This document shows, one piece after another, positions 38,544-57,073 of a DNA stretch of 64,000 bases. The stretch spans positions 20,365 to 84,364 of the forward strand of contig JAZSQQ010000077.1 of assembly GCA_045538055.1 (NCBI GenBank), given 5' to 3'. The notes beneath the pieces are model-generated. The model made no database searches. It had not been told where the DNA came from and saw nothing but the letters and a program-made list of their open reading frames with translations. A program made the translations under genes and the position numbers. The DNA is from Acutalibacteraceae bacterium (GTDB lineage Bacteria > Bacillota > Clostridia > Oscillospirales > Acutalibacteraceae). How positions within the stretch are numbered: the first letter of the stretch is position 1; each line of letters opens with the position of its first letter.

Positions 38544-40085
38544 ATGAAAAAATTATTTGCAGTTTTAGTAGCAATGGCTCTCGTTCTCACAATGGGAACA
38601 ACATTCGCATTCGCAGCGGGTGAAACAGGCACAATCACAATCAACCATGCTGTGACAGGCGCTGTTTACGAAGCTTACAAAATGCTTGACTTTGAACCGT
38701 CTAAGACAGCAGACCAGGGTATCTACACAATCGCAGATGATAAGTGGGATGCATTCTTCGAAACAGGAGAAGGCGCAAACTACTTTGATGTAACAGTACA
38801 GGGCGATGATAAGGTAGTTACACTCAAAGAAGATGTTGACGAAGTTGACCAGACTCTTGCAAAGGCAGCAATTGCTTACGCTAAGGCTAACTCTATTGCT
38901 CCTACAGCAACAGCACCGGAAGATGCACCGGCAACAAGTCCGGAGGAAACAAAAGTAACATTCGAGAATCTTCCGCTCGGTTACTATGCAATTGACACTT
39001 CACTCGGTACTCTTTGTGCAATTACAAACACAGACTCAGACGAAGACATCTGGGAAAAGAACGGCCAGCCGGGTATCGACAAGTACGTTCAGGAAGACAG
39101 CCTTGCAACACAGCCCACAGGCGGTTGGCAGAAGGTAAACGATGCTGACATCGGTCAGGTTGTTAACTACAAGTCAACAATCACAGTTGGCGAAGGCGTT
39201 ACAAACTATGTAATGCACGATAAGATGGAAGACGGTCTTACATTTATCGAAGACAGTGTAGAGGTTAAGATCGGTGACCAGGTTGTTTATCCGCCAAACT
39301 ACACAGTAGTTGTTGATCCTGATGACGGTGACACCTTTGATATCGTGTTCGAGGATGATTTCATTCTTGGTCTTGCAAAGAATTCAACATTCACAGTTTA
39401 CTACTCAGCAACTCTTGATGAGGACGCAGTTATCGGTAACGTAGAAAACGGTAACGAAAACGAAGTTTACCTTTCATACGGTGAAAACAACAGATGGGAA
39501 ACATCTAAGGATAACACATCAACATTCACATGGAAGATTGATATCTCCAAGGTTGACGGCGAAACAAAAGACAAGCTTGCAGGTGCTGAATTCGAACTTT
39601 ACAACACTGATCCTGAGGCTGAAGGCGCAACACCCATTAAGCTTGTAAAGATCAGCGACGGTTCTGTTGCTGAAGACGGCACAGTTACACCCGCAGTTTA
39701 CGAAGTTTATGACGGTACAGCTGAAGTAGAAACAACTACTACAATCGTAACTGATGCAAGCGGTGAGTTCTATGTACAGGGTCTTGACGAAGGTACATAT
39801 TACCTCAAGGAAACAAAAGCTCCTGAAGGATATAATATGCTTCCTGACCCCGAAACAATTACAATCGCAAGCACATACAATGAGGCTGATAAAGCTAACC
39901 TTCAGGCTGACTACACAGTTAACGGAAGTACTCCTGCAGTAATTGAAATTGAAAATAACTCCGGTTCATTGCTTCCTGAAACAGGCGGCATCGGTACAAC
40001 AATTTTCTACGTTGTAGGCGGTCTCCTTATGGTAGGTGCTGTTGTATTCCTCGTTTCCAAGAAGAGAATGGCAACATTTGCTTGA
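38544..40085 (+). CDS. Major pilin (LPXTG-anchored, CnaB/SpaA-type)
   Basis: 513 aa with an AAAGGAAG RBS. Signal peptide MKKLFAVLVAMALVLTMGTTFAFA. Pilin-motif-like IWEKNGQPGIDKYV. CnaB-like LAGAEFELYN...GTYYLKETKAPEGYNML. Sorting signal LPETGG, then a TM segment, then KKRMATFA. Confidence 0.85.
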   Translation: MKKLFAVLVAMALVLTMGTTFAFAAGETGTITINHAVTGAVYEAYKMLDFEPSKTADQGIYTIADDKWDAFFETGEGANYFDVTVQGDDKVVTLKEDVDEVDQTLAKAAIAYAKANSIAPTATAPEDAPATSPEETKVTFENLPLGYYAIDTSLGTLCAITNTDSDEDIWEKNGQPGIDKYVQEDSLATQPTGGWQKVNDADIGQVVNYKSTITVGEGVTNYVMHDKMEDGLTFIEDSVEVKIGDQVVYPPNYTVVVDPDDGDTFDIVFEDDFILGLAKNSTFTVYYSATLDEDAVIGNVENGNENEVYLSYGENNRWETSKDNTSTFTWKIDISKVDGETKDKLAGAEFELYNTDPEAEGATPIKLVKISDGSVAEDGTVTPAVYEVYDGTAEVETTTTIVTDASGEFYVQGLDEGTYYLKETKAPEGYNMLPDPETITIASTYNEADKANLQADYTVNGSTPAVIEIENNSGSLLPETGGIGTTIFYVVGGLLMVGAVVFLVSKKRMATFA

Positions 40086-40300
40086 AAGGATAAAGAATCG
40101 GACGATTCTGAGGAATCAGAAGATTCTGATACTTCCGAAGAATCCTAAGATTCCCGCAGCAGCTGCTGCACAGTAAAAACTCAACCCCTGCCGGCCTTGT
40201 GCCGGTGGGGGCGAATGAAAAAACATTTAAAATTCTGACCGTTGTTATCGAATTCTCGGTGGTAACGTTGAAAATTTTAAAATGAATCAAGAGATAAGCT

Positions 40301-41293
40301 ATGGAAGAGAAAAAAACTAAAAAGAAAATAAAGAAGAAAAAAGCCCCGAAAAAGAAAAGCGGACTCACCTCTACAATAGTACTGGTAGCAATCTTTTTTA
40401 TCGGGTTATGTGTTCTGCTTTATCCGACGATAAGTGACTTCTGGAACGAGAAAAGACAGTCCAAGGCAATTATGAACTATGATGAGTTGCTTGTTGACCT
40501 CACTCCCGAAGATTTTGCGGAATACTTTGAAAAAGCAGATAACTATAACCGTAAGCTTCGTCGTATGAACGCACCGATGTCGGGTTATTCCGCACTTGAA
40601 AAGGAATACTACTCAACGCTCGACATCAACGGTGACGGAATGATGGGTTACATCACTATTGAAAAAATCAAGGTGCAGCTGCCCATTTACCACGGCACAA
40701 GCGCAAAAGTTCTTAACTCTGCTGTCGGTCACGTTGAGGGCACAAGCCTGCCTGTCGGTGGCGAGAATACGCACGCTGTTCTTTCTGCTCACCGTGGTCT
40801 GCCGTCTGCAAAGCTTTTTACAAACCTTGACAAAGTCGAGGTCGGCGACGTATTCACAGTAACAATCCTCGACCGCACAATTACTTACCAGGTTGACCAG
40901 ATACGTGTTGTTCTGCCGAACAAAACAGAGGATCTTCAGATTCAGAAAGGTGAAGATTTCTGTACCCTTGTAACCTGTACGCCTTACGGTATCAATACTC
41001 ACCGAATGCTCGTCAGGGGAACAAGAATTGAGAATATCGAAGAAGCAAAGAAGATAAACGTTATTACGGAAGCTTACCTTGTTGACCCGTTCATCGTAAC
41101 TCCTGCCGTTGCGGCTCCGATGCTTGGCGGACTTCTTATCTTCCTTATGGTTAAGTCTTCAAAGGAAAAAAAGCTTAACGAGGCAAAGCAGAGAGAGAAA
41201 GCAAAAAACAACGGTCAGGAACTTCCCGAAGAACCGAAAAAGAAAGAAAAGAAATTAAAGAAAACTAAAAAGAATAAAAAGAATGAAAAATAA
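40301..41293 (+). CDS. Class C (pilin-polymerising) sortase
   Basis: 330 aa. N- and C-terminal TM segments. VLSAHRG (His), TLVTCTPYGINTHRMLVRG (the TLxTC Cys and the Arg). Confidence 0.85.
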   Translation: MEEKKTKKKIKKKKAPKKKSGLTSTIVLVAIFFIGLCVLLYPTISDFWNEKRQSKAIMNYDELLVDLTPEDFAEYFEKADNYNRKLRRMNAPMSGYSALEKEYYSTLDINGDGMMGYITIEKIKVQLPIYHGTSAKVLNSAVGHVEGTSLPVGGENTHAVLSAHRGLPSAKLFTNLDKVEVGDVFTVTILDRTITYQVDQIRVVLPNKTEDLQIQKGEDFCTLVTCTPYGINTHRMLVRGTRIENIEEAKKINVITEAYLVDPFIVTPAVAAPMLGGLLIFLMVKSSKEKKLNEAKQREKAKNNGQELPEEPKKKEKKLKKTKKNKKNEK

Positions 41294-41319
41294 ATTCAAA
41301 AAGAAAGGTGGTTAAAGGA

Positions 41320-42300
41320 ATGAAAATCAGAAAGATTGTATCGCTTGTTGCAATACTCATATCTTTTGCGATTGTTGCGTTTACTCTGTCTGCAACAGCT
41401 GCCGCTTTTCTTGACAAAAACGGAAGCGTAACTCTCCGCGTTACGGATTCAGAAACAGACATACCGCTGAAAAACGTAGCGTTCCGTCTTTACTTTGTTG
41501 CACGTGCATATGAAAGCGGAAACTCAATTCGTTATGAACTGATTCCACCGTATGACGAAAGCAAAATCGGAATAGACGATCTGCAGGACGCATCCTTGCC
41601 CATTCATCTTGCATATTTCGCAGAGTCCCGTTCTTTGCCATACACAGAAAAGAGCACGGATGAAAACGGTGTTCTCGTTTTTGAAGACCTTACACCGGGG
41701 TTGTATCTCATAGTTCCTGCTCAGGAGATTGAGGGCTGTTATATGCCGTCGCCGTTTGTTGTAAGCGTTCCCGAATACGACACAGTAAATAAAACTTGGG
41801 TGTTCGATGTTGACGCTTCTCCGAAAATTATCGGAGGTGTCGTTGACGGGGATGAGGATACTTATATAAGCGTTGTTAAAAAGTGGAAAACAGAAAAAGA
41901 AATCCCCGAAAAAATTACAATTGTCCTTCTTCGTGATTTCAAAGAATTTGCAAAAATCGAGCTGAACGAAGATAACAATTGGCATTACCGCTGGGACGGC
42001 CTTTCAAAGGATTTCGTCTGGAGTGTTGTTGAATCGCAGGTCCCCGACGGATACAAGGTTTGTTACGAAACCTCGTCTAACACAGTTACAATCATCAACA
42101 AGTATAACGAAGAAGGTACAACCGAACCGGGTGAGGGAACGACCCGACCGTCAGATGGCGAAGAAGATGACGACGGCAAGGATGACCTCGCTGATACGGG
42201 TCAGCTCAATTGGCCGATACCTGTTTTTGCAGTCGCAGGACTTTTACTCTTCAGCATCGGCTGGGCTGTATTGAATTTCGGTAAAAAAGAAAACGAATAA
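41320..42300 (+). CDS. Minor or basal pilin with CnaB-type domains and an LADTG sorting signal
   Basis: I prefer the ATG at 41320, which has a GGTGG RBS. Signal peptide present. LKNVAFRLYF...GVLVFEDLTPGLYLIVPAQ, VVKKWKTEKE...VPDGYKV. C-terminus LADTG, then a TM segment, then GKKENE. Confidence 0.8.
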   Translation: MKIRKIVSLVAILISFAIVAFTLSATAAAFLDKNGSVTLRVTDSETDIPLKNVAFRLYFVARAYESGNSIRYELIPPYDESKIGIDDLQDASLPIHLAYFAESRSLPYTEKSTDENGVLVFEDLTPGLYLIVPAQEIEGCYMPSPFVVSVPEYDTVNKTWVFDVDASPKIIGGVVDGDEDTYISVVKKWKTEKEIPEKITIVLLRDFKEFAKIELNEDNNWHYRWDGLSKDFVWSVVESQVPDGYKVCYETSSNTVTIINKYNEEGTTEPGEGTTRPSDGEEDDDGKDDLADTGQLNWPIPVFAVAGLLLFSIGWAVLNFGKKENE

Positions 42301-42320
42301 ACAGAAAGGGGAGCAATTGC

Positions 42321-42899
42321 ATGAAGAGAAAAGTCGGTATTTCGCTTATAACGATAGGACTGATTCTCATTTTCTGTGCGGCAGCTCTCCTTGTTTACAA
42401 CAATTACGAAAACCGTAGAGCCAAGGAGCATACAGATGCTTTGATGGGTTCTATTGCAGATGAAATCAACAGCAATCATTCAGGTGATGTTGACCCGTTT
42501 GATAAGGAAATGAAGGTTGTTGACATCAACGGATACGGATATATCGGATATATTTCTGTGCCTAACCTGAAAATCGATCTTCCTGTTATGTCTGAGCTGG
42601 ATCAGGGACGACTGAAAATAGCTCCCTGCCGCTATTACGGTTCAACAAAAACAGATAATCTTGTTATCGCCGCACATAATTACAGAAGTCACTTCGGATA
42701 TCTCGGAAGACTTGATATCGGATCTGCAATTTCTTTCACTGATATGGAGGGGAAGAAAAAATCTTACACCGTCACATCGGTTGAAATCCTGCAACCTTCT
42801 GATTCCGATAAAGTAAAGGATACGGGAGACGATCTTATTCTGTATACCTGTACGTACCGAGGTGTCAGCAGAATTGTTGTAAGGTGTTCTGAAGTATAA
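42321..42899 (+). CDS. Second, small sortase (housekeeping or anchoring type)
   Basis: 192 aa. N-terminal TM segment, IAAHNY (His), LILYTCTYRG (Cys), SRIVVRC (Arg). Confidence 0.75.
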   Translation: MKRKVGISLITIGLILIFCAAALLVYNNYENRRAKEHTDALMGSIADEINSNHSGDVDPFDKEMKVVDINGYGYIGYISVPNLKIDLPVMSELDQGRLKIAPCRYYGSTKTDNLVIAAHNYRSHFGYLGRLDIGSAISFTDMEGKKKSYTVTSVEILQPSDSDKVKDTGDDLILYTCTYRGVSRIVVRCSEV

Positions 42900-43254: not shown

Positions 43255-45759
43255 TCATGCATTTTTAAAAGTTTCCATATAATTTGCAACAATATCGGTA
43301 CTTCTCAATTTATATTGAGTTATCAAGGTATTAATTCTACTTTCATCTAACCAGTTGTCATTTTGAGAAACAGCAATCACAAATTCATTCACATTCCTTT
43401 TAAGTGAATCAAGTTTATCAGGTGTAATAATCATCATATTAGGAATAGAAGTTGCTTGCCTATCAATAATTGTTGATTTGTGAACCATTATAGGGGTTGC
43501 TGAATAAAGATCACCATATTCAGCATCAAACCATCTTATAGAACCACCTAATTGATTACAATAATCTTTTGAAATTGTTTCTGAAACAGCTGCACTTTTA
43601 CATTCAATTACAAAATATTTGTTGTTTCCGACGGCCCAAAGATTATCAGGACCTTCTCCACAAGTCTCTTTATCTGGACGAGTTGATACAAAACCGATCA
43701 TTTCACCAATGGTTTGCAATGCATTCTCGAATTCATCAGCGTCAGCCGAAAACACAAGAGAAGAAGAGATTGCATTTGCATGGATTACATAATCGTTTTG
43801 TGAAATTTTATTTTTTTCTATATACTCACATACAGCCTTAGCTTGAGCAATATTATTGATTGATTTATCGTATCTAATTCCGTTAATAGGAGCAAGAGTG
43901 CTAATATTAACCGATCTTCCCGCCAGTAAAATTTGCTGCGCTCTTGATCCATCGATAAAATTCATAAATTTTGCTTTTGTTTGCAACAGATAACCTTTAG
44001 TCGATTTGGTTGCTTCACGATTAATAACTTGATCAATAAAATCAACAGATTTTTGCCATTGTAACATCATAGCAGAATCATACGCATTGCGTAAAGCGAG
44101 TGTATTATCATCAAACTGTGGTTCTGTTGAATACATAACACTAGATAAACGCTCTTTACTTTTTTGTATCCATTCAACATTCCTATTAAGTGAAAAATAT
44201 GCTAAGTCAAACACATCATCAACAGTAGGCTTGGGATTTTCTTCTTTTAACAACCACCACAACTCTTTTGATAAATTATATTGTTCTCTTGTAGCGTTAC
44301 TAAAAAATGATACTCCATTACTTCTAAGTAAGATATCAGCAAGATTATCACCCATTAAAACAACGCAACAAGAGTCACTATTTGACCTAACGCCTCGTCC
44401 CATTCCTTGCTCAATTCGCTGTATCTGTTCTCTTCTTAGAATGTTACTAGATGGATCTATACTTTGTATGTATTTGTCTTTTTCATTTCTTAAAGGTGGC
44501 AAGCCATCAATGATCAACATCCTACAGGCATCATCCGGCAAATCAATCCCATCATATCTATTAACAAAAACAAAAAGTCCAACATGATTATTTTTTAATG
44601 AGCTAACGAATTTATCTATATTGTCTTTTGTTGCAGTCCTCAAACCATCTGGATCCCAATATTTTGCCCTATCAAACGAAGGTACAATAACAACAACATT
44701 GAAATCTTGAGCAATTGAAAGCACCTTATTTTTGATATCGTCATTTGTTATTTCGTTATTGAGATGCCTAGGAAAAAGAATTAGCCTATCACCAATATCG
44801 TTTGCATTATCTGGCGATATCACCCCGCGCACATCTTCTTTATGTAAGCCAATTGCAGAAATAAAAACACTATCATCTGAAAGCGTTGCGCTCATAAAGA
44901 TTCTTCTTTGAGCATTCATAAAACTTTGAATTTTTGAAATAGAGATTCCCTCTGGTATTATTTCAATATATCTTGATGTTACGAAACAATCACAAGTTTT
45001 TAAAGAGTCATCAATCAAAGGCAGATTAAAATAAATGCAACGATTTGCTTCTTCATCGGTATTATACTTGGAAAGTAAAGTGTATACTTCCGCCTGCTTT
45101 TCTTGCCACATCCAAAATGGAATAATAAAGTTTTTTGACAAATCACTATTTTTTACAATATTAATGTATGAACTGCTATTATAACTTTTCCATTGTTCAG
45201 CAAATAAAGCAATTAGTTCCTTATAAAGATTATGCGTGGACGGTATTTTTACGGAGAATTGAGTTGTAATTGTATCAAAACAAGCATGAACATCATCCAT
45301 TAAAATACTACCAATAGGATAATTAGTTGTTTGTCTCATTCCAAAAACGCTGTGTCCATTAACCAAAGAAAAAATAGACATAACTAATATTGCCTTGTTC
45401 TCAGTATAGGCATAGTCCTCTCTATTCGTTACTGCTTGTATTCCAAGTTTTTTTGCTTCGTCGCATACTTGATCTACTAGATAATTATCTGGCACAACAT
45501 ATACAGCCGGACCTTTTCCTTCATTTAAACAACTTTGTAATATCATTAATCCAACAACAGTTTTTCCACTACCTGTATTCATTTTAATGATACAGTTTTT
45601 TTCGTTTCTTACATCGAACCATTTTTTCCACACCTCAGATTGAACATCCCTTGGATACTCGTATCTTTTGTCTTTCTGTGGCAAAGCCATAAAAATTTCT
45701 CTTGGTTCAATAGGAACAGATTTAGTTGTTCCACTTAGTTTAGAAAGTAATGAAGTCAT
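43255..45759 (-). CDS. SF2 DEAD/DEAH-type helicase fused to a C-terminal PD-(D/E)xK-like nuclease (single-gene helicase-nuclease defence candidate, Hna-like architecture)
   Basis: 834 aa with a GGAGGA RBS. Motif I MNTGSGKTVVG, motif II ILMDDVHAC, motif III FMSATLSD, motif VI EQGMGRGVRS. C-terminus has GPDNLWAVGNNKYFVIECKS (D...E-x-K). Confidence 0.75.
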   Translation of the reverse strand: MTSLLSKLSGTTKSVPIEPREIFMALPQKDKRYEYPRDVQSEVWKKWFDVRNEKNCIIKMNTGSGKTVVGLMILQSCLNEGKGPAVYVVPDNYLVDQVCDEAKKLGIQAVTNREDYAYTENKAILVMSIFSLVNGHSVFGMRQTTNYPIGSILMDDVHACFDTITTQFSVKIPSTHNLYKELIALFAEQWKSYNSSSYINIVKNSDLSKNFIIPFWMWQEKQAEVYTLLSKYNTDEEANRCIYFNLPLIDDSLKTCDCFVTSRYIEIIPEGISISKIQSFMNAQRRIFMSATLSDDSVFISAIGLHKEDVRGVISPDNANDIGDRLILFPRHLNNEITNDDIKNKVLSIAQDFNVVVIVPSFDRAKYWDPDGLRTATKDNIDKFVSSLKNNHVGLFVFVNRYDGIDLPDDACRMLIIDGLPPLRNEKDKYIQSIDPSSNILRREQIQRIEQGMGRGVRSNSDSCCVVLMGDNLADILLRSNGVSFFSNATREQYNLSKELWWLLKEENPKPTVDDVFDLAYFSLNRNVEWIQKSKERLSSVMYSTEPQFDDNTLALRNAYDSAMMLQWQKSVDFIDQVINREATKSTKGYLLQTKAKFMNFIDGSRAQQILLAGRSVNISTLAPINGIRYDKSINNIAQAKAVCEYIEKNKISQNDYVIHANAISSSLVFSADADEFENALQTIGEMIGFVSTRPDKETCGEGPDNLWAVGNNKYFVIECKSAAVSETISKDYCNQLGGSIRWFDAEYGDLYSATPIMVHKSTIIDRQATSIPNMMIITPDKLDSLKRNVNEFVIAVSQNDNWLDESRINTLITQYKLRSTDIVANYMETFKNA

Positions 45760-45816
45760 AAATAATCCTCCTAGTTGATTGGTCTTTTGCGCAAAACGTA
45801 TCCTTTATTGTATTTG

Positions 45817-45885
45817 TTATTTTAACTTTTTGCACAGCTACAGAATTTGCTCAAGTTTAGCAACAATGCGTTTTTATTGGTAGAA
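45817..45885 (-). pseudogene. Orphan remnant of an hsdS 3' conserved tail
   Basis: The minus strand reads AAACGCATTGTTGCTAAACTTGAGCAAATTCTGTAGCTGTGCAAAAAGTTAAAATAA, which translates as KRIVAKLEQIL*LCKKLK*. The intact hsdS tail at 46466-46525 reads KRIVAKLEEILPLCERLK*. About 70% nucleotide identity by eye. Confidence 0.7.
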
Positions 45886-45903
45886 AAATATTCTTTGTCG
45901 TGA

Positions 45904-46458
45904 CTATCCTCGTTCTTTTTTTGTGTACACATAATCTTTTTTATCTTCGTCTGCGTGCATACATGTAGCTACAACATAATCATTGCCTACAAAATCCATA
46001 TATGCAAGCCAATCTTTCAACTCAATTCTGTAAAGCATTTTGTTTCTGTCATAGTCAGAAGAAACATAAAAGCCGTCAATTGCACCATTATCATTATAGG
46101 ATAAAAAGAAAACATATGAATGAATCAGCCAATTACATATATCAGCACCAGATTTTGTATACGTTTCTTCGTGCCCCCAATTATGCGTATCGTCATCAGG
46201 CCATCTATGCATTAAATCGATTTCTTTTGTGGGGCGAACACCCTTCAAATGGAATGTATACTCATCTACTTCATCGCTAACCTTCCCTTTGCAATCAATC
46301 AGCTTTCTGATAATAAATGCGGAATAAAAGATTGCTTTCTCTATAACTGTGTATGCTCGATCATACTCTTCAGCAAGAAGCTCAGCACGATTATATTTTT
46401 GAATAAGTCGTCTTCTTCGTAACAAGTCTTGCTTCCACGGATAGCTTTCGTAAATCAT
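45904..46458 (-). CDS. Hypothetical 184-aa protein lodged between hsdS and the duplicated hsdS tail
   Basis: The ORF starts 7 nt after the hsdS stop. No recognisable motif (MIYESYPWKQDLLRRRRLIQKYN...). Confidence 0.6.
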   Translation of the reverse strand: MIYESYPWKQDLLRRRRLIQKYNRAELLAEEYDRAYTVIEKAIFYSAFIIRKLIDCKGKVSDEVDEYTFHLKGVRPTKEIDLMHRWPDDDTHNWGHEETYTKSGADICNWLIHSYVFFLSYNDNGAIDGFYVSSDYDRNKMLYRIELKDWLAYMDFVGNDYVVATCMHADEDKKDYVYTKKERG

Positions 46459-46465
46459 AATACAA

Positions 46466-47896
46466 TCATTTCAACCTTTCACACAGCGGCAGGATTTCTT
46501 CGAGTTTGGCGACGATGCGCTTCTGTTCGGCAAGAGGCGGAAGTGGAACAAACAGCGAGTGGAGTGTTCCCGAAGACAATCCTTTAATGCCGATTCCTTT
46601 ACCATTGATCATTCCTGCATTCTTGTACAGGTAAAAAACATGATAGAAGTATTTGATGCTTAAATTTCCATAAGGACGCAGTCTGTGAATATGGTTTTGT
46701 ATTCGCATTGGAAAATCATAGTTCCAAATAGCAGCTCTACCAACATCGCCGCCTTCAAGAACCAGAAGGTCGCCTTTTTGAACAGTACATTTGTCAACCT
46801 CTGTTTCTGTAAATAGCATTGTTTTCAGTTTGTCAAGCGTGAAGCTGTTCCAGTATACATTTGAGGTTGTGATATATTCCATTGGGTTTCCGGATTTATC
46901 AGAAGAGTTCAATGCTTTTCCTGTATTATGTTGAAACAAATCACCTATATATACCCATTTCCAACTTTCCGGAATATCAAACGGGATTTCGTCCTCTGTA
47001 ATTTCGGATAGGGGCTTTTCTTTTTTGGTTTTGCCTGCTTTGATAAGAGATTGCTTTTCTGCCTGAATCTGCTGGAACAGTTCTTCTCCGGTGCCTTCTT
47101 CGGGGCGTTGCTCTACAAGCTTGCCCTGAATGGCCATTTGAAGGATAGATTTCTGCATATCCACAGGGAAACGCTTGTTGAAGTCTTCCAACTTGCTCCA
47201 TGCCTGTTCGTAGCGGTCAATCAGAGGCAACAATTCCTCAATTTTCGCCACAATGCGCTTCTGCTCTGCAAGCGGGGGTAGTGGTACAACCTGGTTTTTG
47301 ACCACATCACCTGTTATTGCTACAAAAGTGGTGCCAGTAGCTTTCTTAACAAAGATGTTTTCCATTGTTGCAAGCCAGTAGTAAACAAAATCTACAGAAA
47401 CACCACAAATAGGCTTTACAGCACACAAACCACGACCGATACAAATTTGTCTTTTGGTAATATTCACTTTGCCCACTGGAGCGCGGACACAAAGTAATAC
47501 AGAATTTGGTTCCGCATATTTAGTAGGCGCGGTAGTCTTTTGTGGGGAAAGTTGTAACTCCATCTTACCAAAATGGACTTTTCCCTGATGAAATTCTATT
47601 CCATCACCTATTTCTGATACAGTGTTACCGTCGGGAGATTGTCCCATTTCAAGACAAAACACCTCTCCTAATCTAACATGCCTCCAACTTTCAGGAATAT
47701 CGAATTGAATCTCGTCTTCAGTAATTTCAGGTAATAGCTTTTCTTTTTTAATTTTGCCTGATTTAATCAACACCTGCTTTTCTGTCCGGATCTGCTGAAA
47801 GAGTTCTTCGCCTGTGCCTTCTTCGGAAAGCTGAGGAACCAGTTTGCCCTGAATTGCCAACTGCAGAATACTTGCTTTTAATTCCTGCGGTGTCAT
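46466..47896 (-). CDS. hsdS: Type I restriction-modification specificity subunit
   Basis: 476 aa. Two variable target-recognition regions are separated by duplicated conserved repeats (LPPLAEQKRIVAKIEELLPLIDRYEQAW and LPPLAEQKRIVAKLEEILPLCERLK; AIQGKLV...EEGTGEELFQQI occurs twice). Confidence 0.9.
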   Translation of the reverse strand: MTPQELKASILQLAIQGKLVPQLSEEGTGEELFQQIRTEKQVLIKSGKIKKEKLLPEITEDEIQFDIPESWRHVRLGEVFCLEMGQSPDGNTVSEIGDGIEFHQGKVHFGKMELQLSPQKTTAPTKYAEPNSVLLCVRAPVGKVNITKRQICIGRGLCAVKPICGVSVDFVYYWLATMENIFVKKATGTTFVAITGDVVKNQVVPLPPLAEQKRIVAKIEELLPLIDRYEQAWSKLEDFNKRFPVDMQKSILQMAIQGKLVEQRPEEGTGEELFQQIQAEKQSLIKAGKTKKEKPLSEITEDEIPFDIPESWKWVYIGDLFQHNTGKALNSSDKSGNPMEYITTSNVYWNSFTLDKLKTMLFTETEVDKCTVQKGDLLVLEGGDVGRAAIWNYDFPMRIQNHIHRLRPYGNLSIKYFYHVFYLYKNAGMINGKGIGIKGLSSGTLHSLFVPLPPLAEQKRIVAKLEEILPLCERLK

Positions 47897-49413
47897 TCCT
47901 GACCACCTCCGAGAATTGCGGTTATATCAGCTAGCACACGGTCAATCTCTGCATTGAGAGATGCACGCTCGCCCTGATATCGCTGAATCAAATCCATTGG
48001 AGCAAGAATTTCTTCTTCTATGTGAGGATAGCCGCACTGGTCGAAGTTGTAACCCAGTTCTTCTGTCAACTGCTGAACCGTAAATTTCTTTGATTTATCA
48101 AAACCGTCAACAGTGATTTCTTGACGGTTGTTCCACCACTCAACAACAGGTGCAAAGTGTTCAACCTTCATAGGCTTGGTCTTTGAGAAATGTTTATAAC
48201 CTTCCGGCATATCCATACGGTAGAACCAAGTTTCTTCTGTCGGCTTTGTTCTGTCAAAGAAAAGGATATTGGTAGTAATTGATGTATAAGGCGCAAAAAC
48301 ACTACCCGGCATACGAATAACTGTATGCAGATTAAATTCTGATAAAAGTTTCTTTTTAAGATTTACCTTTGCATTATCTGTGCCGAAAAGGAAACCATCA
48401 GGCAGAATAACAGCAGCACGACCATATTTCTTTAAACGATACATAATAACTGCCATAAACAAGTCGGCTGTTTCACTGCTTGCAAGGTCATCAGGGAAGT
48501 GGTTTTTAACATCAGCTTTTTCACTTCCGCCATACGGAGGATTCATAAGAATAACATTAAACTGATCATCAACGGTATAGTCAAGAACATCTCTTAAAAG
48601 AGTGTTATCGTGAAAAACCTGAGGAATATCCAAACCGTGTAACAAGAGATTTGTTACACAGAGCATATAAGGAAACTGCTTCTTCTCAATACCGTAAACT
48701 GATTCACCGTACTTTTTAGCATCTGCAGTACTGTTAACTTGCTTCTGTAAAACTTTAAGCCAGCTTGTGATAAATCCACCTGTACCGCAAGCAAAGTCAG
48801 CCATCTTTTCACCGATTTTCGGCTGAATCATCTGTGCCATAAAATCAGTTACAGCACGAGGGGTATAAAATTCACCTGCAGAGCCTGCACTTTGTAATTC
48901 CTTAAGTATAGACTCATAAATCTCACCGAAAGCGTGGCTTTCTTCGTAGTCATCGAGTTCAAGTTCATCAATAACGTTGATAACCTGACGAAGAAGAACA
49001 CCGTCTTTCATATACTGGTTCGCATCGGCAAATGTTGTCTGAACAATAGCTTTTTTGATAGGTGTATCTGCAGTTACTTTAACACCTTCAATCAGAACAT
49101 TGCCTGATGAATCCTTGATATCAGTACCTTTAAGAACCGGGAAAAGAGTGTTGTTGACAAAATTCAGCAATGTATCACCCGTCATAGCTGAGCCTGATTT
49201 ATCATCATGTGCCCAGCTGCTCCAACGGCAGGGTTCGGGAATGATAGATTCATAATTTGTTTCATCAAATTCCCAGTCCTGTTCCTTTGCATCATATACT
49301 TTCAAAAAGAGCATCCATGCAATCTGCTCGATACGCTGTGCATCACCGTTGATACCGGCATCATTACGCATAATGTCACGGAGTCTTTTTATAAATCCTG
49401 ATAAATTACTCAT
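47893..49413 (-). CDS. hsdM: Type I R-M N6-adenine DNA methyltransferase subunit
   Basis: 506 aa. HsdM N-terminal region, FYTPRAV, DFACGTGGF, ILMNPPYG. Overlaps the hsdS start by 4 nt. Confidence 0.9.
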   Translation of the reverse strand: MSNLSGFIKRLRDIMRNDAGINGDAQRIEQIAWMLFLKVYDAKEQDWEFDETNYESIIPEPCRWSSWAHDDKSGSAMTGDTLLNFVNNTLFPVLKGTDIKDSSGNVLIEGVKVTADTPIKKAIVQTTFADANQYMKDGVLLRQVINVIDELELDDYEESHAFGEIYESILKELQSAGSAGEFYTPRAVTDFMAQMIQPKIGEKMADFACGTGGFITSWLKVLQKQVNSTADAKKYGESVYGIEKKQFPYMLCVTNLLLHGLDIPQVFHDNTLLRDVLDYTVDDQFNVILMNPPYGGSEKADVKNHFPDDLASSETADLFMAVIMYRLKKYGRAAVILPDGFLFGTDNAKVNLKKKLLSEFNLHTVIRMPGSVFAPYTSITTNILFFDRTKPTEETWFYRMDMPEGYKHFSKTKPMKVEHFAPVVEWWNNRQEITVDGFDKSKKFTVQQLTEELGYNFDQCGYPHIEEEILAPMDLIQRYQGERASLNAEIDRVLADITAILGGGQE

Positions 49414-49418
49414 TATAA

Positions 49419-50048
49419 TTAACCTGCGCTTTCTTCTATTTCCGAGAAGTCAAGAGGAATATCAATCCCCATTACATCTTTGATCCTTTTGTTTTGCTCT
49501 ATCTGCAATTCTTTTATCATTTCTCTTGTGGGATATATTTTATGTGGTTGGTCTGCATCTACTGTGCAATCAAAAGCGACATAAGGTGGCATATGCTTTT
49601 CTGCATAAAGAAATGGGTCATTATCATCGCTTTGCTGTTGATCGCTGGAATGGGAAAGATATTCAAAATGATAATCTTCGGCTTTAATCAAAGCAATTCC
49701 ATGTGATTTAGCGTATTCAATTGCACCACTTTGAAAATCACTAGTAGAAATTAAAATACCTTTTTGCGCACCAATGCTTTCAAGTTTCCGATGTAAAATA
49801 GCAACCTTATCTCTATTTACCCTGTTTTTGTATTTCTTGCATTCACATAAAACTTTATGATGCACACCCAAAGCAGTATATTCAATATAAACATCAATTT
49901 GATATTTACCATCAGGTGCTTTGATTTTTGTATCGTGTGTTATTTTAAAATCTGGCAACTTTTCTTTTTCTGCATACCCCTTTAAAAATTCACAACAATA
50001 TTTCTCAAATTCTGTTGGTGTAAGCTCATAAATACTTTTACGTTCCAT
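49419..50048 (-). CDS. Mrr-like restriction endonuclease domain protein embedded in the type I R-M operon
   Basis: 209 aa. TPTEFEKYCCEFL...DGKYQIDVYIEY...VLCECKKYKNRV (D...E-x-K), then ISTSDFQSGAIEYA. Confidence 0.7.
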   Translation of the reverse strand: MERKSIYELTPTEFEKYCCEFLKGYAEKEKLPDFKITHDTKIKAPDGKYQIDVYIEYTALGVHHKVLCECKKYKNRVNRDKVAILHRKLESIGAQKGILISTSDFQSGAIEYAKSHGIALIKAEDYHFEYLSHSSDQQQSDDNDPFLYAEKHMPPYVAFDCTVDADQPHKIYPTREMIKELQIEQNKRIKDVMGIDIPLDFSEIEESAG

Positions 50049-50065
50049 TCAACCACCTTTGATCT

Positions 50066-52447
50066 TTAACTTGCTTTATACAATTCTTCTTCCAATTCTT
50101 TTATAGCTTTAAGATAGCCGTCCTTTCCGCCAAAATAGTTCGCAATTTTTGAAGGTTTGCCGAACTTCTTAAACGGATCAAGCTGAAGAATTTCAGTCTT
50201 CTCTATTTCATAAATACCGGTATTCATATATTTATCAAGTAAAGCCTCAAGCACTTCTCTTGCAACACCACTGTATTTGCTCAAGAAATCACGCTTTTTA
50301 ACATTGTTTGCTCTCTCTCGGCGGGTAAGCGGTTTCTGGTCATAAGCAACATGACAAATGAAGTCAAAGTCATCCACATCGCTCAATCCCTGATCAGCTT
50401 TCATCTGCTCAAGATCAATACCTTGTTCTCTCAGCAATTCACGAATTGCTTCTTTCTTTTCTTCACCTGTCCATTTAAGAATGAAGTTATCAAGAGACGC
50501 GTATTTGCCGAGAATGTTTGACTTTGTATAGTCAACAATGCTTTCCTGACGAAGAAGTTTCCCATCAGAATCGTATACCTCTACACGTTTACCGATAATA
50601 TGAACATCACAACCGTTTTCATCAACAATGGGTTTGATTCTTGGCTGTGGAGGAGTGTCGGGACCTGTGCCTCCTCCGGGTGTGTCAGGTCCTGTTCCGC
50701 CTTTCTTCTTCGGGTTTGGATCATATCCGTCAACCATCTCAATAGGTCCGTCCCAATCAGGGTCAGAGAACAATCTTGTAACGTTACGGAAATCCATAAC
50801 AACAAAGTGACTCTTACCTTCTTTCTCTCTAAGACGAGTGCCACGACCGATAATCTGCTTAAACTCAGTCATTGAGCTTATCATTTCATCGAGAACTATA
50901 AGCTTAGTCATTTTGCAGTCTGCACCTGTTGAAAGGAGCTTTGATGTTGTGGCAATAACTGGGCCTTCGGGATTAACTGAAATAAAATATTTCAATTTGC
51001 TCTTACCATAAGGGTCTGAACCGGTAATTCTGACTACATAGTCAGGATTATCTTTACACATATCAGCGTTTAGATTGGTAAGAGCAGTTCTCATTCTGTC
51101 TGCATGGTCTTCGTTAGCACAGAACACGATAGTTTTCTGCATTCTGTCAGTGCTTTTAAGATATTCTGTTATTTCTTTTGCAACCTCAAAAGTACGGTCT
51201 TCAAGAATAATGTTGTAATCAAAATCACTATTAGTGTAAATTCGGTCTTCAATTTCATTACCGAATTTATCTCTCTGACCATAGCATGGGCGCCAACCTT
51301 CACCGATATCGGTTTTGATGTTGATAACTTTAAAAGGTGCGAGGAAACCGTCTTCAATACCTTCACGAAGGCTATATGTATATACAGGCTCACCGAAGTA
51401 ATCAATATTTGAAATATACTTTGTTTCCTTTGGTGTTGCTGTCATACCTATCTGAGTTGCAGATGAGAAGTATTCAAGAATCTTTCGCCAGTTGCTATCC
51501 TTTTTAGCGGAACCTCTGTGACACTCATCTACGATAATGAGGTCAAAGAAATCTTTGCTGAACAGCTGTGCAAAACGCTCTACTGCATCTTCACCAGAGG
51601 TTTCATCTTCTTCATCAGCATTATTGCCTGCAAGCTGCTGATAGAGTGAGAAATATACTTCGTGAGAAGTTATAGTAACGGGGTCATCCTTTGCAAAATT
51701 GATTTTATGAATCGTTTTTTCAAGCGGTGAAAAGTCCTGCTGAATAGACTGGTCAACAAGAATGTTTCTATCCGCAAGATATAAAACCTTCTTCTTTAAA
51801 CCACTTTTAAGCAAACGGTAAACAATCTGAAATGCAGTATATGTTTTACCCGTACCTGTTGCCATTACAAGCAACAGACGATCTTGTCCTTTTGCTATTG
51901 CTTCTACAGTACGGTTGATAGCATTACGCTGATAATAACGAGGAGCGTAAGTGTTCTGACTCGAATAGTAAGGCTGTGCAATAACTTTTCTCTCATTATC
52001 AGAAATGCCTTCACCGTCATTAGCTCCGACTTCCCAACGAGCAGTCAACTCCTCAACTGTGGGGAACTCGTCCATAGCTAAAGTTCTTTCTTTTCCTGTA
52101 AGGAAATCATACTCCTGAAAACCATCACCGTTAGAACTGTACGCAAACGGTACGTCAAGCATCAACGCATATAATTTTGCTTGTTGTAAGCCATAGGAAA
52201 TAGAGTGATTATTATCCTTTGCTTCAACAATAGCAATAGGTTTATATTTATTAAGATATAAAACATAGTCTGCCTTTTTGGGCTTTTCTCTTGCAACAAG
52301 ATTACCTTTAATGTTGACTCTACCGTCAGTTATCCTTGTTTCCATGGTAATACGGTCAAGACCCCATTTACCCTGAATAGCAGGAGTTATGTAGTGAAGT
52401 TTTATGTCTTCTTCTGTCATTTGCTTTTTATTTAATATGGGACCCAT
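50066..52447 (-). CDS. hsdR: Type I restriction enzyme R subunit
   Basis: 793 aa. N-terminal nuclease region ADYVLY...IVEAKD, helicase motifs MATGTGKT and IVDECHRG, and a C-terminal EcoEI-R-like tail. Confidence 0.9.
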   Translation of the reverse strand: MGPILNKKQMTEEDIKLHYITPAIQGKWGLDRITMETRITDGRVNIKGNLVAREKPKKADYVLYLNKYKPIAIVEAKDNNHSISYGLQQAKLYALMLDVPFAYSSNGDGFQEYDFLTGKERTLAMDEFPTVEELTARWEVGANDGEGISDNERKVIAQPYYSSQNTYAPRYYQRNAINRTVEAIAKGQDRLLLVMATGTGKTYTAFQIVYRLLKSGLKKKVLYLADRNILVDQSIQQDFSPLEKTIHKINFAKDDPVTITSHEVYFSLYQQLAGNNADEEDETSGEDAVERFAQLFSKDFFDLIIVDECHRGSAKKDSNWRKILEYFSSATQIGMTATPKETKYISNIDYFGEPVYTYSLREGIEDGFLAPFKVINIKTDIGEGWRPCYGQRDKFGNEIEDRIYTNSDFDYNIILEDRTFEVAKEITEYLKSTDRMQKTIVFCANEDHADRMRTALTNLNADMCKDNPDYVVRITGSDPYGKSKLKYFISVNPEGPVIATTSKLLSTGADCKMTKLIVLDEMISSMTEFKQIIGRGTRLREKEGKSHFVVMDFRNVTRLFSDPDWDGPIEMVDGYDPNPKKKGGTGPDTPGGGTGPDTPPQPRIKPIVDENGCDVHIIGKRVEVYDSDGKLLRQESIVDYTKSNILGKYASLDNFILKWTGEEKKEAIRELLREQGIDLEQMKADQGLSDVDDFDFICHVAYDQKPLTRRERANNVKKRDFLSKYSGVAREVLEALLDKYMNTGIYEIEKTEILQLDPFKKFGKPSKIANYFGGKDGYLKAIKELEEELYKAS

Positions 52448-52525
52448 TTTGTGTCCTCCTTGTTATGACTGCTACAAGTGTTTTGTAGCTACTTTTAGTT
52501 TAGTCTTTTACATTTCAACTCATTA

Positions 52526-53383
52526 TTAATGATTGCACTGTATAGCATTTATTTTGGATTTTAATTCTTTAACTTTTATGGCTCTATCTACATTATCTAA
52601 AGTCAAAAAAGCTAGCAATATCATTTGATATAACTCGTCATACCATTTTTCGAGTCTCTGTTTGCTCATTTTTGCAACATATTCTTTATATTTTCCTTTA
52701 TCTTTTTTACTTCGATTATTATGTCGAATATTCATGTTATTCAACATAAAGAAAATATCTTCGGATAGTTGCTTGTTAACTGCTTGAAGTTCTTTACGTT
52801 TTGGCTCTAATTCAGCACCTAAAGATATTAAAATGGTTTTCTTTAACTCAATTTCACCTTGTAAAGAACGATGGTTATATCGAATGATATCCAAAGCCAA
52901 GTTTTCTTCTATTATTTCGGCAACAGCAGTTACCTCGGGTTTATGTTCTATGATCAATACTTGATCACCGTCCACATAAGCTGTATGGTTATACTTTTCA
53001 ATGTTATCAAGCATTACATCGTGAAGATGATAAAAATTGTTTTGCCAACGACTGTCTGATGATTTGTCTTGCAAATCATTATGGGCCAAAAGCCAAAAGT
53101 TATATGTTAACTCAATTAGCGTGATGAATGAATCCGTGTCTCCTTGTTTCGCAGAGTCTTTTAAATCCATATATTTAACAGATTGAAGATAATCTTTTAC
53201 ATCAATAAAATGTCCTCTTTTACTCCATTTTTTGAAACAATATTTGTCAACGAAATCAAAAACTGAATGGCTATAAGGTCGATAGTACATATTTTTCTCT
53301 TCTAATGACATTGATACAATTCGATCCACTTCATTAGACATATTTATTGATTGTTCTGCTATGTCAAAAATACTTCGTCTCAC
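52526..53383 (-). CDS. Hypothetical 285-aa protein between hsdR and the GmrSD-like gene
   Basis: Clean ORF with no recognisable motif. The C-terminal half looks helical and coiled-coil-like. Confidence 0.5.
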   Translation of the reverse strand: MRRSIFDIAEQSINMSNEVDRIVSMSLEEKNMYYRPYSHSVFDFVDKYCFKKWSKRGHFIDVKDYLQSVKYMDLKDSAKQGDTDSFITLIELTYNFWLLAHNDLQDKSSDSRWQNNFYHLHDVMLDNIEKYNHTAYVDGDQVLIIEHKPEVTAVAEIIEENLALDIIRYNHRSLQGEIELKKTILISLGAELEPKRKELQAVNKQLSEDIFFMLNNMNIRHNNRSKKDKGKYKEYVAKMSKQRLEKWYDELYQMILLAFLTLDNVDRAIKVKELKSKINAIQCNH

Positions 53384-53502
53384 TACGTTCCTCCTTTAAC
53401 AGAAACTTATCTTTTAAATTGATATTTTTTTATGTGATTTCGGTTTACATAAAACAACCTGTTAAATGTTCTAAATTTAAGAATTATTTAATCGTTTTAG
53501 AT

Positions 53503-55350
53503 TTACCACTTATACATATCCATCAAAGTTGCAACAATCTTGTCTGTACGGTCCTTGATTTTATCTACAGTCCAAGTATTTTCAGTTACAACATCCTGAT
53601 TTAAGAACAGACCGTTTCGATAACCGATATCTTTTGTCTTGTCTTTAGATTTTCTATCCTTCTTATGTTCAAAAGACATGTTTGAAAGGTTTTGGTTATA
53701 ACCGGTAATTGTTAAATTACCCAGTGTATGTACATAATCAAATCTATATTGCTTTGCTTTTGCTGCATCACCATCCGCAATCATATTTACCCAATCAGAC
53801 GGTATGTTTTCACCTTCGGGGAAAATATGTTCAATTGTCCAGATATACTTGTTGCTACTGTCTCTTGACCATAAATCAGAATATATTTCTTTTGTCTGAT
53901 GCTGAGCTTCGATGCTGCAAAGCACAAAACGAGTAGCTTCAGGGTTTTCATCATAGATAGGACCACGCAGTTTATCTTCAAACATTTCATCGGTGGCAGA
54001 GACATTTTTCAACATCTCTTTAACAGCGTTTACAATGTCTGTTCCAGATTCAGTCTTGATTTTTAAAATTATATCTATAAATAACTGTGTGAGCTTACGA
54101 GTGTTGGGTACATCAGTAAGATTACGACGAACAAAGAATATTATTAGTGTTTCAACTATTTCTTTTATGGAATCATCGGTAAGTGCTAAAGCTTCCTGAT
54201 TAGTGAGTAAATACATTAAGAGAATATATGAAGGAGCACCTGAGATTCTTGCAAGATTTTGCATGCTTGATGTATATACATAATCGTCATCAGTGTTATT
54301 CACAAGAATTGCATATTTGGATGCTTTCTCCAACAAATCATTCAACAAATCCTGATAATTATGTTTTATCATTTTTTCATAAATATCGATCAATGTAGTT
54401 CTAGTAGCCAAGTAACCAAGATAATATTTCTTGTCGCCATCTTTATATGGCTCATTAAGTTCATCTCTGAAAGCATTGTAGAATTGTCTAAAGAAACGCT
54501 CTTGAATCGAATAGTCGTCCTGACCAACATATTTCAAAATTTGTTTCCATTGCTCATAAGCATTATCCGCATCTGATGAGTTTTCTGCCTGAGCAATGAG
54601 TGAGTTTTTTATAAGGTCAAGAGCAGAGAGTGGAACACCTCTGTGGTTTAATGATTCAAAAAGCATATATGCATCCTTATTAGTGTCAACTTCAATTCCA
54701 ACTAATACGGCTGCTTCAAATTTTCTAACAATCTGAAATAAAGCTCCAATATCAGAAAAATTTGGATTTTCTGCTTTGATTTCAGCGATTTCTTCATTTA
54801 TAAGTTTAATAAAGTGTCTGTAAGCTTTAGCGATTCTTCTATTACCAAAATTATACGGCTTGTTTTTAGGTGCGGTAATAATTCCGTTGTCAGCCAAGAT
54901 GAATGTGTAATCTTCATCATTAGAATTCTGCTTCTGCAAGAGAAGTCTCTGTGTATATTCAGTTATCTTACTTCCGTTCGGAGTAAACTTTTGATTTTTG
55001 TTAGCAAGTTCATTTCGAAGATTTGCTAAGTCACTTAAATCATCTTCGTCCATTTCGCTTTTTCGACTTGCCAATTCAAAATATAAAGCGGCAAGTAAAA
55101 GGGTAATTGTAGAAAAACGTTGTTGTCCATCAATCACTTCTAAAGTTGTTCCTTTTAATGAACCGCTATTCACACAAATATATGAGCCTAAGAAATATCC
55201 AGCATCGTTCTCAGTTACATCTTTAAACAAAGCATCCCATTCCTTGATGCCCCAAGTATATTCTCTTTGATACTTAGGAATTCGGTACACTTTGTCACTT
55301 GAAATAGAAAATACATCTGCAATTGTAGTTTGTGAAACAGTTTTAATCAT
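53503..55350 (-). CDS. DUF262/DUF1524 (GmrSD-family) type IV restriction-like enzyme
   Basis: 615 aa. N-terminal IPKYQREYTW and VIDGQQRFSTITLL (DUF262, ParB-like). C-terminal WTIEHIFPEG...GNLTITGYNQNLSN (a His-Me finger as in DUF1524). Confidence 0.85.
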   Translation of the reverse strand: MIKTVSQTTIADVFSISSDKVYRIPKYQREYTWGIKEWDALFKDVTENDAGYFLGSYICVNSGSLKGTTLEVIDGQQRFSTITLLLAALYFELASRKSEMDEDDLSDLANLRNELANKNQKFTPNGSKITEYTQRLLLQKQNSNDEDYTFILADNGIITAPKNKPYNFGNRRIAKAYRHFIKLINEEIAEIKAENPNFSDIGALFQIVRKFEAAVLVGIEVDTNKDAYMLFESLNHRGVPLSALDLIKNSLIAQAENSSDADNAYEQWKQILKYVGQDDYSIQERFFRQFYNAFRDELNEPYKDGDKKYYLGYLATRTTLIDIYEKMIKHNYQDLLNDLLEKASKYAILVNNTDDDYVYTSSMQNLARISGAPSYILLMYLLTNQEALALTDDSIKEIVETLIIFFVRRNLTDVPNTRKLTQLFIDIILKIKTESGTDIVNAVKEMLKNVSATDEMFEDKLRGPIYDENPEATRFVLCSIEAQHQTKEIYSDLWSRDSSNKYIWTIEHIFPEGENIPSDWVNMIADGDAAKAKQYRFDYVHTLGNLTITGYNQNLSNMSFEHKKDRKSKDKTKDIGYRNGLFLNQDVVTENTWTVDKIKDRTDKIVATLMDMYKW

Positions 55351-55368
55351 ATTTTTACTCCTTACATT

Positions 55369-55575
55369 TTACTCTTCCGCAACAAATTCCATAATATCAT
55401 CTACACCGCAATCGAGGGCTTTGCAGATTTTGCCGAGGGTTTCGACGGTAACGTTTTCTCCTTTGCTCATTTTTGTAATTGTGTAGTTGCTGATATCGGC
55501 GACCTTTGCAAGGTCCTTTTTCTTCATATCGTGATCAATCAGAAGCTTCCATAATTTCTTATAACTTACAGACAT
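55369..55575 (-). CDS. XRE-family HTH regulator preceding the GmrSD-like gene
   Basis: 68 aa, LIDHDMKKKDLAKVADISNYTITKMSKGENVTVETLGKICKAL. Confidence 0.8.
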   Translation of the reverse strand: MSVSYKKLWKLLIDHDMKKKDLAKVADISNYTITKMSKGENVTVETLGKICKALDCGVDDIMEFVAEE

Positions 55576-55590
55576 AATTACACCTCAGAA

Positions 55591-55621
55591 AGAATATAAT
55601 TTTACTTCTACATTATATTCT
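55591..55621. promoter_or_regulatory. Perfect 10-bp inverted repeat operator overlapping the XRE promoter
   Basis: AGAATATAAT-N11-ATTATATTCT lies 15 nt upstream of the XRE start. A TATAAT hexamer is present on the minus strand within it. Confidence 0.55.
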
Positions 55622-55853
55622 TCTTGAATAGCTTTTGCAAGAAAAAATGAAGCGAAAACTAAATTTTTATTCAAAAGACCTACAATGTGCACATATATTC
55701 CCTGAAGTGTCTGTGAAGACATACTTTTCCTATATATATAAATGACTAAAATCGCAGAATGTCACATATAATTTTCAGTTTCTTACAATGTTCTACCTTT
55801 TACACAGTACAAGGTAATACAGATTGTGCAGTATTACGACAGAAAACGACAAA

Positions 55854-57067: not shown

Positions 57068-57073
57068 ACCGAC

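Follow-up and report, generated by a model that had tools for sequence, protein, structure and literature searches.

Our analysis of a 64,000-nucleotide (nt) stretch of DNA from an Acutalibacteraceae bacterium (contig JAZSQQ010000077.1), hereafter called the window, revealed that a gene encoding a 184-amino-acid (aa) protein directly behind the specificity gene hsdS of a type I restriction-modification (R-M) operon is bracketed by two copies of the 3' end of hsdS. We call this open reading frame ORF184. The explanation that we favor, with moderate confidence, is that accessory genes become stacked behind hsdS through homologous recombination in its conserved 3' end and that ORF184 is one such cassette, encoding an autonomous accessory or defense protein. 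All features of interest are on the minus strand, and those that bear on this explanation are, in the order of transcription, as follows.

46466-47896, minus strand: hsdS, type I specificity subunit of 476 aa (Pfam Methylase_S in two stretches, E = 4e-35; NCBIfam type I S subunit).
46466-46555, minus strand: conserved 3' tail of hsdS (...LFVPLPPLAEQKRIVAKLEEILPLCERLK*, with stop codons shown as asterisks), the left-hand repeat and left edge of the putative mobile block.
46459-46465, minus strand: spacer TTGTATT, 7 nt, between the hsdS stop and the ORF184 start.
45904-46458, minus strand: ORF184, 184-aa protein of an uncharacterized family, starting 7 nt past the hsdS stop.
45817-45878, minus strand: degenerate copy of the hsdS tail, KRIVAKLEQIL*LCKKLK*, the right-hand repeat, noncoding and decaying.
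43255-45759, minus strand: 834-aa DEAD/ResIII helicase, PADLOC candidate PDC-S28 (PDLC04986, E = 3e-294), separated from ORF184 by a 144-nt spacer.

The product of hsdS has two target-recognition domains (TRDs), corresponding to its two Methylase_S domains, and ends in ...LPPLAEQKRIVAKLEEILPLCERLK*; past ORF184, the same frame reads the degenerate peptide listed above. The best local alignment of the two tails (46527-46468 against 45878-45819) is gapless over 60 nt, with 44 identities (73%), and an alternative 58-nt alignment that ends at the stop codons has 42 identical positions. Could an AT-rich intergenic stretch resemble the hsdS tail by chance? The match is short and no more than 73% identical, but chance is an exceedingly improbable explanation. 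The local score of 40 lies about 14 standard deviations above the scores of 500 shuffled sequences (13.2 +/- 1.9, maximum of 21). It also exceeds the scores of all unrelated window tiles: of the 2,130 tiles scanned on both strands, only hsdS itself (160/150) and its central conserved repeat (56) scored higher, the best unrelated tiles reaching 28 to 30 and the median being 14. The remnant was also recovered with an E-value of 1.6e-5 when the tail peptide was searched against the whole window with tblastn. Moreover, the reading frame is kept, a stop codon is found where the hsdS tail has its own, and the resemblance is mirrored in several related loci. By sequence, the two tails are confirmed as true homologues, and they form direct repeats on either side of ORF184.

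The remnant contains two in-frame stops, and 13 of its 16 differences from the functional tail are GC-to-AT changes, which lower the GC content from 0.50 in the hsdS tail to 0.31 (window mean, 0.36). This is the pattern of decay expected of a formerly coding segment freed from selection in a 36%-GC genome. The preliminary description of this DNA had reported a degenerate hsdS tail at 45817-45885, with about 70% identity and an in-frame stop, and had taken the ORF to be flanked by direct repeats and to begin 7 nt after hsdS. Our alignments bear this out, except that the left limit of 45885 is slightly generous: no similarity to the hsdS tail is seen upstream of 45878. Neither strand of either tail, folded as DNA, did better than shuffled sequences (z = +0.60 to +0.84), and a Pfam scan of the element genes found no recombinase adjacent to the tails, the only one nearby being the tyrosine integrase of the mobile element as a whole.

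The tails also mark the boundaries of a shared block in relatives of this locus. Our comparison covered 117 loci (numbered L001 onward) from genome, metagenome and viral collections, largely gut metagenomes of related Clostridia, in which genes were labeled by similarity to the window genes and by Pfam-checked neighbors; their ORF184 homologues collapsed to 44 lineages at 90% identity. In nine relatives (L001, L003, L028/29, L036, L038-L041, and L050), colinearity with the window starts inside the hsdS tail, at 46524-46553, whatever the upstream sequence, and the shared block ends 0 to 42 nt past the ORF184 stop. The junction with the 7-nt spacer is conserved in L001, L003, L028, and L036. In L036 and L050-54 the hsdS gene is gone and a tail remnant still precedes ORF184, followed in L036 by the same spacer and start as in the window. 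The same situation is found in L004 and L008 with a second hsdS family, the tail of which ends in LLP[RK]LMSGxLEV. Directly before its ORF184 homologue, L008 has a 73-aa chimeric ORF (5776-5997) in which an N-terminal fragment of hsdR is joined to the hsdS tail (…LLPRLMSGKLEV); its appearance is that of a recombination scar from an old S-R junction.

Right-hand tails recur as well, each time before a different gene. An ORF184 ortholog is followed by LTKL.GILPLCERLK and then ORF89 in L001/L039, by EKKHIVAKYKEVTSLCERLK and then a Hypoth_Ymh protein in L028-35, and by QSKSIVTKLGEILPLCERLK and then an unknown gene in L040, where the DNA is 85% identical to the functional tail of the window; in the window itself, the next gene is that of PDC-S28. 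L001 contains three tails in the order hsdS-tail/ORF174/tail/ORF184/tail'/ORF89, and L039, which reads hsdS-tail-ORF184, provides the matching empty site for hsdS-tail1-ORF174-tail2-ORF184. The two loci are 91.8% identical over the stretch 5932-7413 of each and 80% identical in the hsdR-hsdM flanks. Because the single tail of L039 is 89% identical to tail1 of L001 and also lies within the 91.8% block that starts at tail2, this sequence pair shows the insertion of a 545-nt cassette in L001 with duplication of the tail. The tails within the L001 array are only 78% identical to each other and so did not stem from a recent local duplication.

Two alternative origins of the right-hand tail have to be weighed against these comparisons. 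First, it might be the relic of a resident hsdS replaced by an incoming hsdR-M-S-ORF184 block through one homologous and one illegitimate crossover, leaving the last ~60 nt of the old gene in front of PDC-S28 as local debris rather than as part of a cassette. The remnant is indeed decayed and noncoding, about 85 nt (45862-45778) match neither the relatives of ORF184 nor those of PDC-S28, and an ancestral hsdS-PDC-S28 junction is plausible given that PDC-S28 is typically embedded in R-M loci (bioRxiv 10.1101/2024.01.29.577857). However, at least four other lineages, with different downstream genes, have a right-hand tail behind the ORF184 ortholog, and colinearity with L001, L039, and L040 extends from ORF184 into the beginning of the remnant (to 45874/45862). 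PDC-S28 relatives with 91% and 78% protein identity share only the 12 to 19 nt before the ATG (window positions 45778/45771) and lack the tail, which is why we assign the remnant to ORF184 and not to PDC-S28. We therefore regard a relic as unlikely, although for this one locus it keeps some probability.

Second, the preliminary description had offered, as an alternative to cassette capture, the replacement of a shufflon-type spare hsdS'; the downstream tail would then be what is left of a silent half-gene used for phase-variable specificity. Duplicated conserved regions of hsdS do serve as recombination sites in known hsdS invertons (PMC7672463), but the repeats seen here have direct rather than inverted orientation, neither the segment between the tails nor the sequence beyond them is TRD-like, no invertase is adjacent, and there are relatives in which three tails are separated by unrelated small ORFs. 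This makes a shufflon very improbable, and the comparative data favor the other proposal of the preliminary description, the capture of a cassette by recombination within the hsdS repeat.

We hypothesize that accessory genes are added one by one to the 3' end of the type I operon. Reconstructed from sequence, the moving unit would consist of the last ~60 to 90 nt of hsdS, the 7-nt spacer, ORF184, and often a second, decaying tail. The 3' end of hsdS encodes the conserved C-terminal helix of the specificity subunit and hence would remain alike across otherwise unrelated alleles, so that the tail could act as a portable stretch of homology, and recombination between tails would leave one tail on each side of the cassette. 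This could happen by at least two routes: a circle carrying a tail and a gene might integrate by a single, Campbell-type crossover, or linear DNA from a donor array might be incorporated by a double crossover, in hsdS or hsdM on the left and in the tail on the right. The upstream tail would then stay under selection as the end of hsdS, while the downstream tail, being noncoding, would decay to the state now seen at 45817-45878. Repeated rounds would build arrays.

What kind of protein does the cassette encode? With dN/dS ratios of 0.09 to 0.12 against four 184-aa orthologs, a large family of uniform length, and a confident structural model, ORF184 is a real gene under purifying selection. A word-indexed search returned 328 homologues of 160 to 237 aa without a Pfam domain or an informative name, and an exhaustive profile search extended the family to at least 1,244 clusters at E ≤ 0.001. 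Distant homologues that are not shortened have ~170 to 280 aa, mostly ~180, and every match is one continuous stretch; no domain fusions were seen among 150 distant representatives. ORF184 itself has no match in Pfam, NCBIfam, PADLOC, or PHROGs, and 61 diverse family members matched no Pfam model, Methylase_S included. Against PADLOC, the same 61 proteins gave only scattered matches, none better than E = 0.002 and no model matching more than two members, and the source names of eight homologue clusters were only "hypothetical protein." The sole match of the family profile to PDB sequences, a helix of ribonucleotide reductase R2F, was marginal (E = 0.006) and was disregarded. A second, divergent ORF184 paralogue (~25% identity, 170 to 202 aa) accompanies the first within the same array, 1 to 2 kb farther downstream (L001, 7475-8083; L039, 8150-8665; L059, 3729-4241).

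The AlphaFold2 model built from 32 sequences (pLDDT of 92.9, pTM of 0.89) predicts three N-terminal helices (residues 3 to 55) followed by a seven-stranded alpha/beta domain. The protein has an overall pI of 5.5, with a basic stretch of 60 residues at the N terminus (pI 9.6) and an acidic remainder (pI 4.8), and it can be described as a basic N-terminal helical hairpin joined to an acidic alpha/beta domain. A Foldseek search with the model found nothing better than E = 0.16 in PDB or BFVD (best PDB match, E = 0.28), and no HsdS chain was among the PDB matches. Together with the absence of a match to Methylase_S (PF01420) even at E ≤ 1, this rules out that ORF184 is an HsdS TRD, in agreement with the preliminary description. 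Residues R51, H113, and S114 are invariant across distant members and S5, W8, K9, E40, K59, S134, and D135 nearly so; the conserved polar cluster R51, K59, H113, S114, S134, and D135 suggests a binding or catalytic pocket. We considered a PD-(D/E)xK motif in D135...E145-x-K147 but abandoned it, since neither E145 nor K147 is conserved. We take ORF184 to be a functional, soluble cytoplasmic protein under strong constraint, with a fold that has no match in PDB or BFVD.

The genomic contexts of the family link it to R-M systems. Type I R-M operons, typically in the order hsdM-hsdS-ORF184-(other genes)-hsdR, house 21 of the 44 lineages; two further lineages follow a type III Mod-Res pair and one follows a Ser/Thr kinase. 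No R-M genes were seen for the remaining 20, 8 of which are on contigs shorter than 5 kb. Thus, about two-thirds of the lineages with enough context lie inside or beside R-M operons, mostly directly after hsdS. Neighbors at these loci include GmrSD, Mrr-like, PDC-S28, Hypoth_Ymh, DUF6236, and Fic proteins. The family is nearly absent from phages and plasmids: searches of 2.9 million viral contigs, 50,697 phage records, and 72,556 plasmids gave 1, 1, and 4 homologues, respectively.

The proximity to hsdS raises the alternative that ORF184 is a dedicated partner of type I systems, such as a regulator, an assembly factor, or a guard that senses HsdMS inhibition as PrrC does when held by EcoprrI, and that the tails are a by-product of its position. 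In its favor, hsdS or a fragment of it is the commonest upstream neighbor (44 of 114 neighbor pairs), no terminator is predicted between the genes, and the ORF184 start lies close to the hsdS stop (-4 to +7 nt) in two hsdS families that are unrelated to each other. The distance is +7 nt for L003, L028, and the window, and it ranges from -4 to +2 nt for L010, L016, and L020. On the other hand, orthologs with 70 to 73% identity follow a type III Mod-Res pair (L042-49) or share a locus with Cas9, ~1.3 kb downstream (L050/51), homologues with 50 to 56% identity follow a type IIG-like methylase and a helicase (L005/6) or a Ser/Thr kinase (L011, L116), and still others have no R-M genes nearby. There is also no similarity to PrrC/RloC or to any PADLOC model. 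We judge a dedicated partner to be rather unlikely, and the orthologs beside type III R-M and near Cas9 make a dedicated type I subunit, in particular, unlikely.

Two of these contexts deserve mention in their own right. In L011, L014, L015, and L116, ORF184 homologues with ~50% identity lie 62 nt past a gene for a 514-aa Ser/Thr protein kinase; the contigs are labeled as different phyla (Lentisphaera, Oscillospiraceae, Anaerovoracaceae), and the L116 pair adjoins a large serine recombinase, which suggests a mobile kinase-ORF184 pair. In one abundant lineage (L005-L007, L013, and L067-L091), ORF184 is always preceded by a 95- to 134-aa hsdS fragment, c4, whose end falls in the central conserved region of hsdS in the case of L007/L013, and is always followed by a 338-aa unannotated protein, c5; this trio at times stands behind an Eco57I-type methylase and a T5orf172-ResIII helicase. 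The recurrent downstream neighbors (c5 and proteins of 319 to 385 aa) show no mutual similarity by BLASTP.

We hypothesize, with modest confidence, that ORF184 is an autonomous accessory or defense protein that is coexpressed with R-M systems. This view is based on its position and orientation, the tight coupling to hsdS, the lack of a predicted terminator, the defense-type neighbors, and the published pattern of embedded genes: genes that reside within BREX, DISARM, and type I R-M clusters are mostly defense related, and the hsdS-hsdR junction is a possible recombination hotspot (bioRxiv 10.1101/2024.01.29.577857; PMC11411939; PMC12255303). No terminator-like site was predicted on the minus strand from hsdS to the next gene and on to PDC-S28, and cotranscription of hsdS and ORF184 is plausible from the sequence. 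We infer that the two genes may be coexpressed through translational coupling to hsdS. Promoter-like sites at the locus were no more common than in shuffled sequence, and hence we make no promoter claim.

Several observations weigh against the cassette model and the role in defense. The right-hand tail is missing in L003, L038, and L002, and loci of the order hsdS-u285-ORF184-hsdR, with the second hsdS family and a 285-aa gene described below, have no second tail; the two-tail form is thus not universal. For the arrangement of the window itself, we found no empty site in which the hsdS tail leads directly to PDC-S28; exact look-ups of ORF184 and PDC-S28 returned nothing but a single short contig that shares this arrangement, so the order of assembly in the window is drawn by analogy with L001/L039. 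At 73% identity, the window tails are now too diverged for efficient homologous recombination, and the process would therefore be historical in this locus. The conservation of the upstream tail could partly come from translational-coupling signals rather than from recombination. As for defense, 12 of the 36 lineages with at least 6 kb of context have no R-M genes nearby, the context counts are not phylogenetically independent because the loci come mostly from gut metagenomes of related Clostridia, and the proposed role draws on context, with no homologue of known function and no structural match behind it.

How does ORF184 compare with known systems? It resembles other R-M-embedded genes (the PADLOC HEC/PDC candidates found by "guilt-by-embedding," DarTG2 in the RRDM island of enteropathogenic Escherichia coli [EPEC], TgvAB in VPI-2 of Vibrio cholerae, and PrrC in EcoprrI) in its same-strand position in or at the end of an hsd operon and in its variable defense-type neighbors (GmrSD, Mrr-like, PDC-S28). 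Encoding on the same strand at a BREX, DISARM, or type I R-M cluster applies to ORF184 of the window and to 21 of the 44 lineages (type I). Unlike the PADLOC HEC/PDC candidates, ORF184 matches no PADLOC 2.0 model. In the published accounts that we consulted, the mechanism of embedding is not tied to a repeated 3' conserved region of hsdS, a detail that the tail-flanked arrays supply.

The arrays are reminiscent of integrons in that promoter-less single-gene units in one orientation stand behind a fixed gene and are bounded by a recurring ~60-nt sequence, and the filled/empty pair shows a whole unit inserted. In contrast to integrons, there is no IntI integrase among the Pfam-scanned element genes and no attC-like hairpin (the fold z-scores are positive); the repeat is coding sequence kept similar by protein constraint, and the pathway that we infer is general homologous recombination. 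Domain movement, allele exchange, and invertons of hsdS (PMC7672463) likewise use the conserved non-TRD parts of the gene as a recombination substrate; however, they reshuffle TRDs and change specificity, whereas unrelated genes lie between direct repeats here.

Like the PrrC/RloC guards, ORF184 is encoded immediately behind hsdS and might plausibly provide a second line of defense. These anticodon-nuclease guards combine an N-terminal ABC-type ATPase with a C-terminal anticodon nuclease domain and have ~400 aa or more, whereas ORF184 has 184 aa, no ATPase domain or motif, no sequence or structural similarity to them, and orthologs that also occur outside type I systems. We mention a guard role like that of PrrC only as an analogy. 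ORF184 also differs from DNA mimics of the ArdA/Ocr type, which are strongly acidic and borne by phages or plasmids, as its pI is 5.5, its N-terminal third is basic, phages and plasmids rarely carry it, and it has no Pfam match.

R-M-embedded accessory genes are a known theme, and in this respect ORF184 is one more unknown among thousands. Compared with the literature that we found, two aspects are new: the tail-flanked cassette arrays with a filled/empty pair, which would give a mechanism of embedding, and an R-M-linked protein family that is large and constrained, has a confident model, and lacks any known relative. Our literature search found no description of hsdS-tail-flanked arrays of non-hsdS genes. 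R-M-embedded genes are being mined for new defense systems and their arrival is mostly described just as a "hotspot," for which these loci offer a concrete and checkable mechanism. More tentatively, and with less than even confidence, we speculate that the 3' end of hsdS is a general docking site in clostridial type I loci, where a recombinase-free, integron-like exchange would stack small defense genes as tail-gene-tail arrays, with ORF184 being a widespread defense or R-M-accessory protein with a fold unrepresented in PDB/BFVD. If the mechanism is general, a search for additional hsdS tails would allow cassettes to be delimited and defense candidates to be nominated without recourse to protein homology. 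ORF184 is itself a good target, given the large family, the strong constraint, the link to R-M, and the confident predicted structure.

The remaining genes of the locus and its surroundings are as follows.

53503-55350, minus strand: GmrSD-type enzyme, first gene in transcription order at the defense cluster.
52526-53383, minus strand: u285, 285-aa gene directly upstream of hsdR.
50066-52447, minus strand: hsdR, restriction subunit (Pfam ResIII, EcoEI_R_C, HSDR_N).
49419-50048, minus strand: Mrr-catalytic-domain gene, 209 aa, type IV-like nuclease, embedded between hsdR and hsdM.
47893-49413, minus strand: hsdM, methyltransferase subunit, assigned from operon position and homologues.
56435-56788: TnpV, upstream of the defense cluster.
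57074-58267: Mob_Pre relaxase, upstream of the defense cluster.
58525-59667: AAA_25 protein, upstream of the defense cluster.
59660-60136: NikA-like protein, upstream of the defense cluster.
59985-61052: tyrosine integrase, beside guaA and ~13.5 to 14 kb from the tails.
61826-62845: guaA, adjoining the mobile element.

The product of hsdM is 79 to 86% identical to that of the gene between hsdR and hsdS in L001 and L003 and groups with L028-L034 genes carrying HsdM_N and N6_Mtase. Because genes for TnpV, a relaxase, an AAA_25 protein, a NikA-like protein, and an integrase lie upstream, the defense cluster looks, from its sequence, like the cargo of an integrative mobilizable element (43255-61052) inserted beside guaA. 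A search with a 12-nt seed found no att repeats bounding the element, and its ends were not located. In related loci, the slot of the Mrr-like gene (49419-50048) is filled by a different, 170-aa ORF or is empty. The PDC-S28 protein (DEAD/ResIII plus Helicase_C_2) also matches phrog_16128, and its C terminus (...PDNLW...VIECK...), read by eye, resembles a PD-(D/E)xK nuclease motif; its close relatives stand behind other R-M cargo or behind a patatin/nSTAND3 pair.

The u285 product is a helical protein of a family with 654 members, with no match in Pfam, PADLOC, or NCBIfam and an AlphaFold2 model (pLDDT of 81) without a PDB match. Its homologues lie directly beside ORF184 homologues in ~21 loci, in either order, and those with 69 to 73% identity stand at the head of R-M operons on integrative elements without ORF184. 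A two-gene system of u285 and ORF184 was rejected on this ground: since close homologues head R-M operons without ORF184, we treat u285 as an independent R-M-associated gene. On the other side of the locus, a pilus cluster on the plus strand (38544-42899), read from translations only, adjoins the mobile element; it encodes a probable pilin (513 aa, with an LPETGG sorting signal at the C terminus), two sortase-like proteins, and a second cell-wall-anchored protein.

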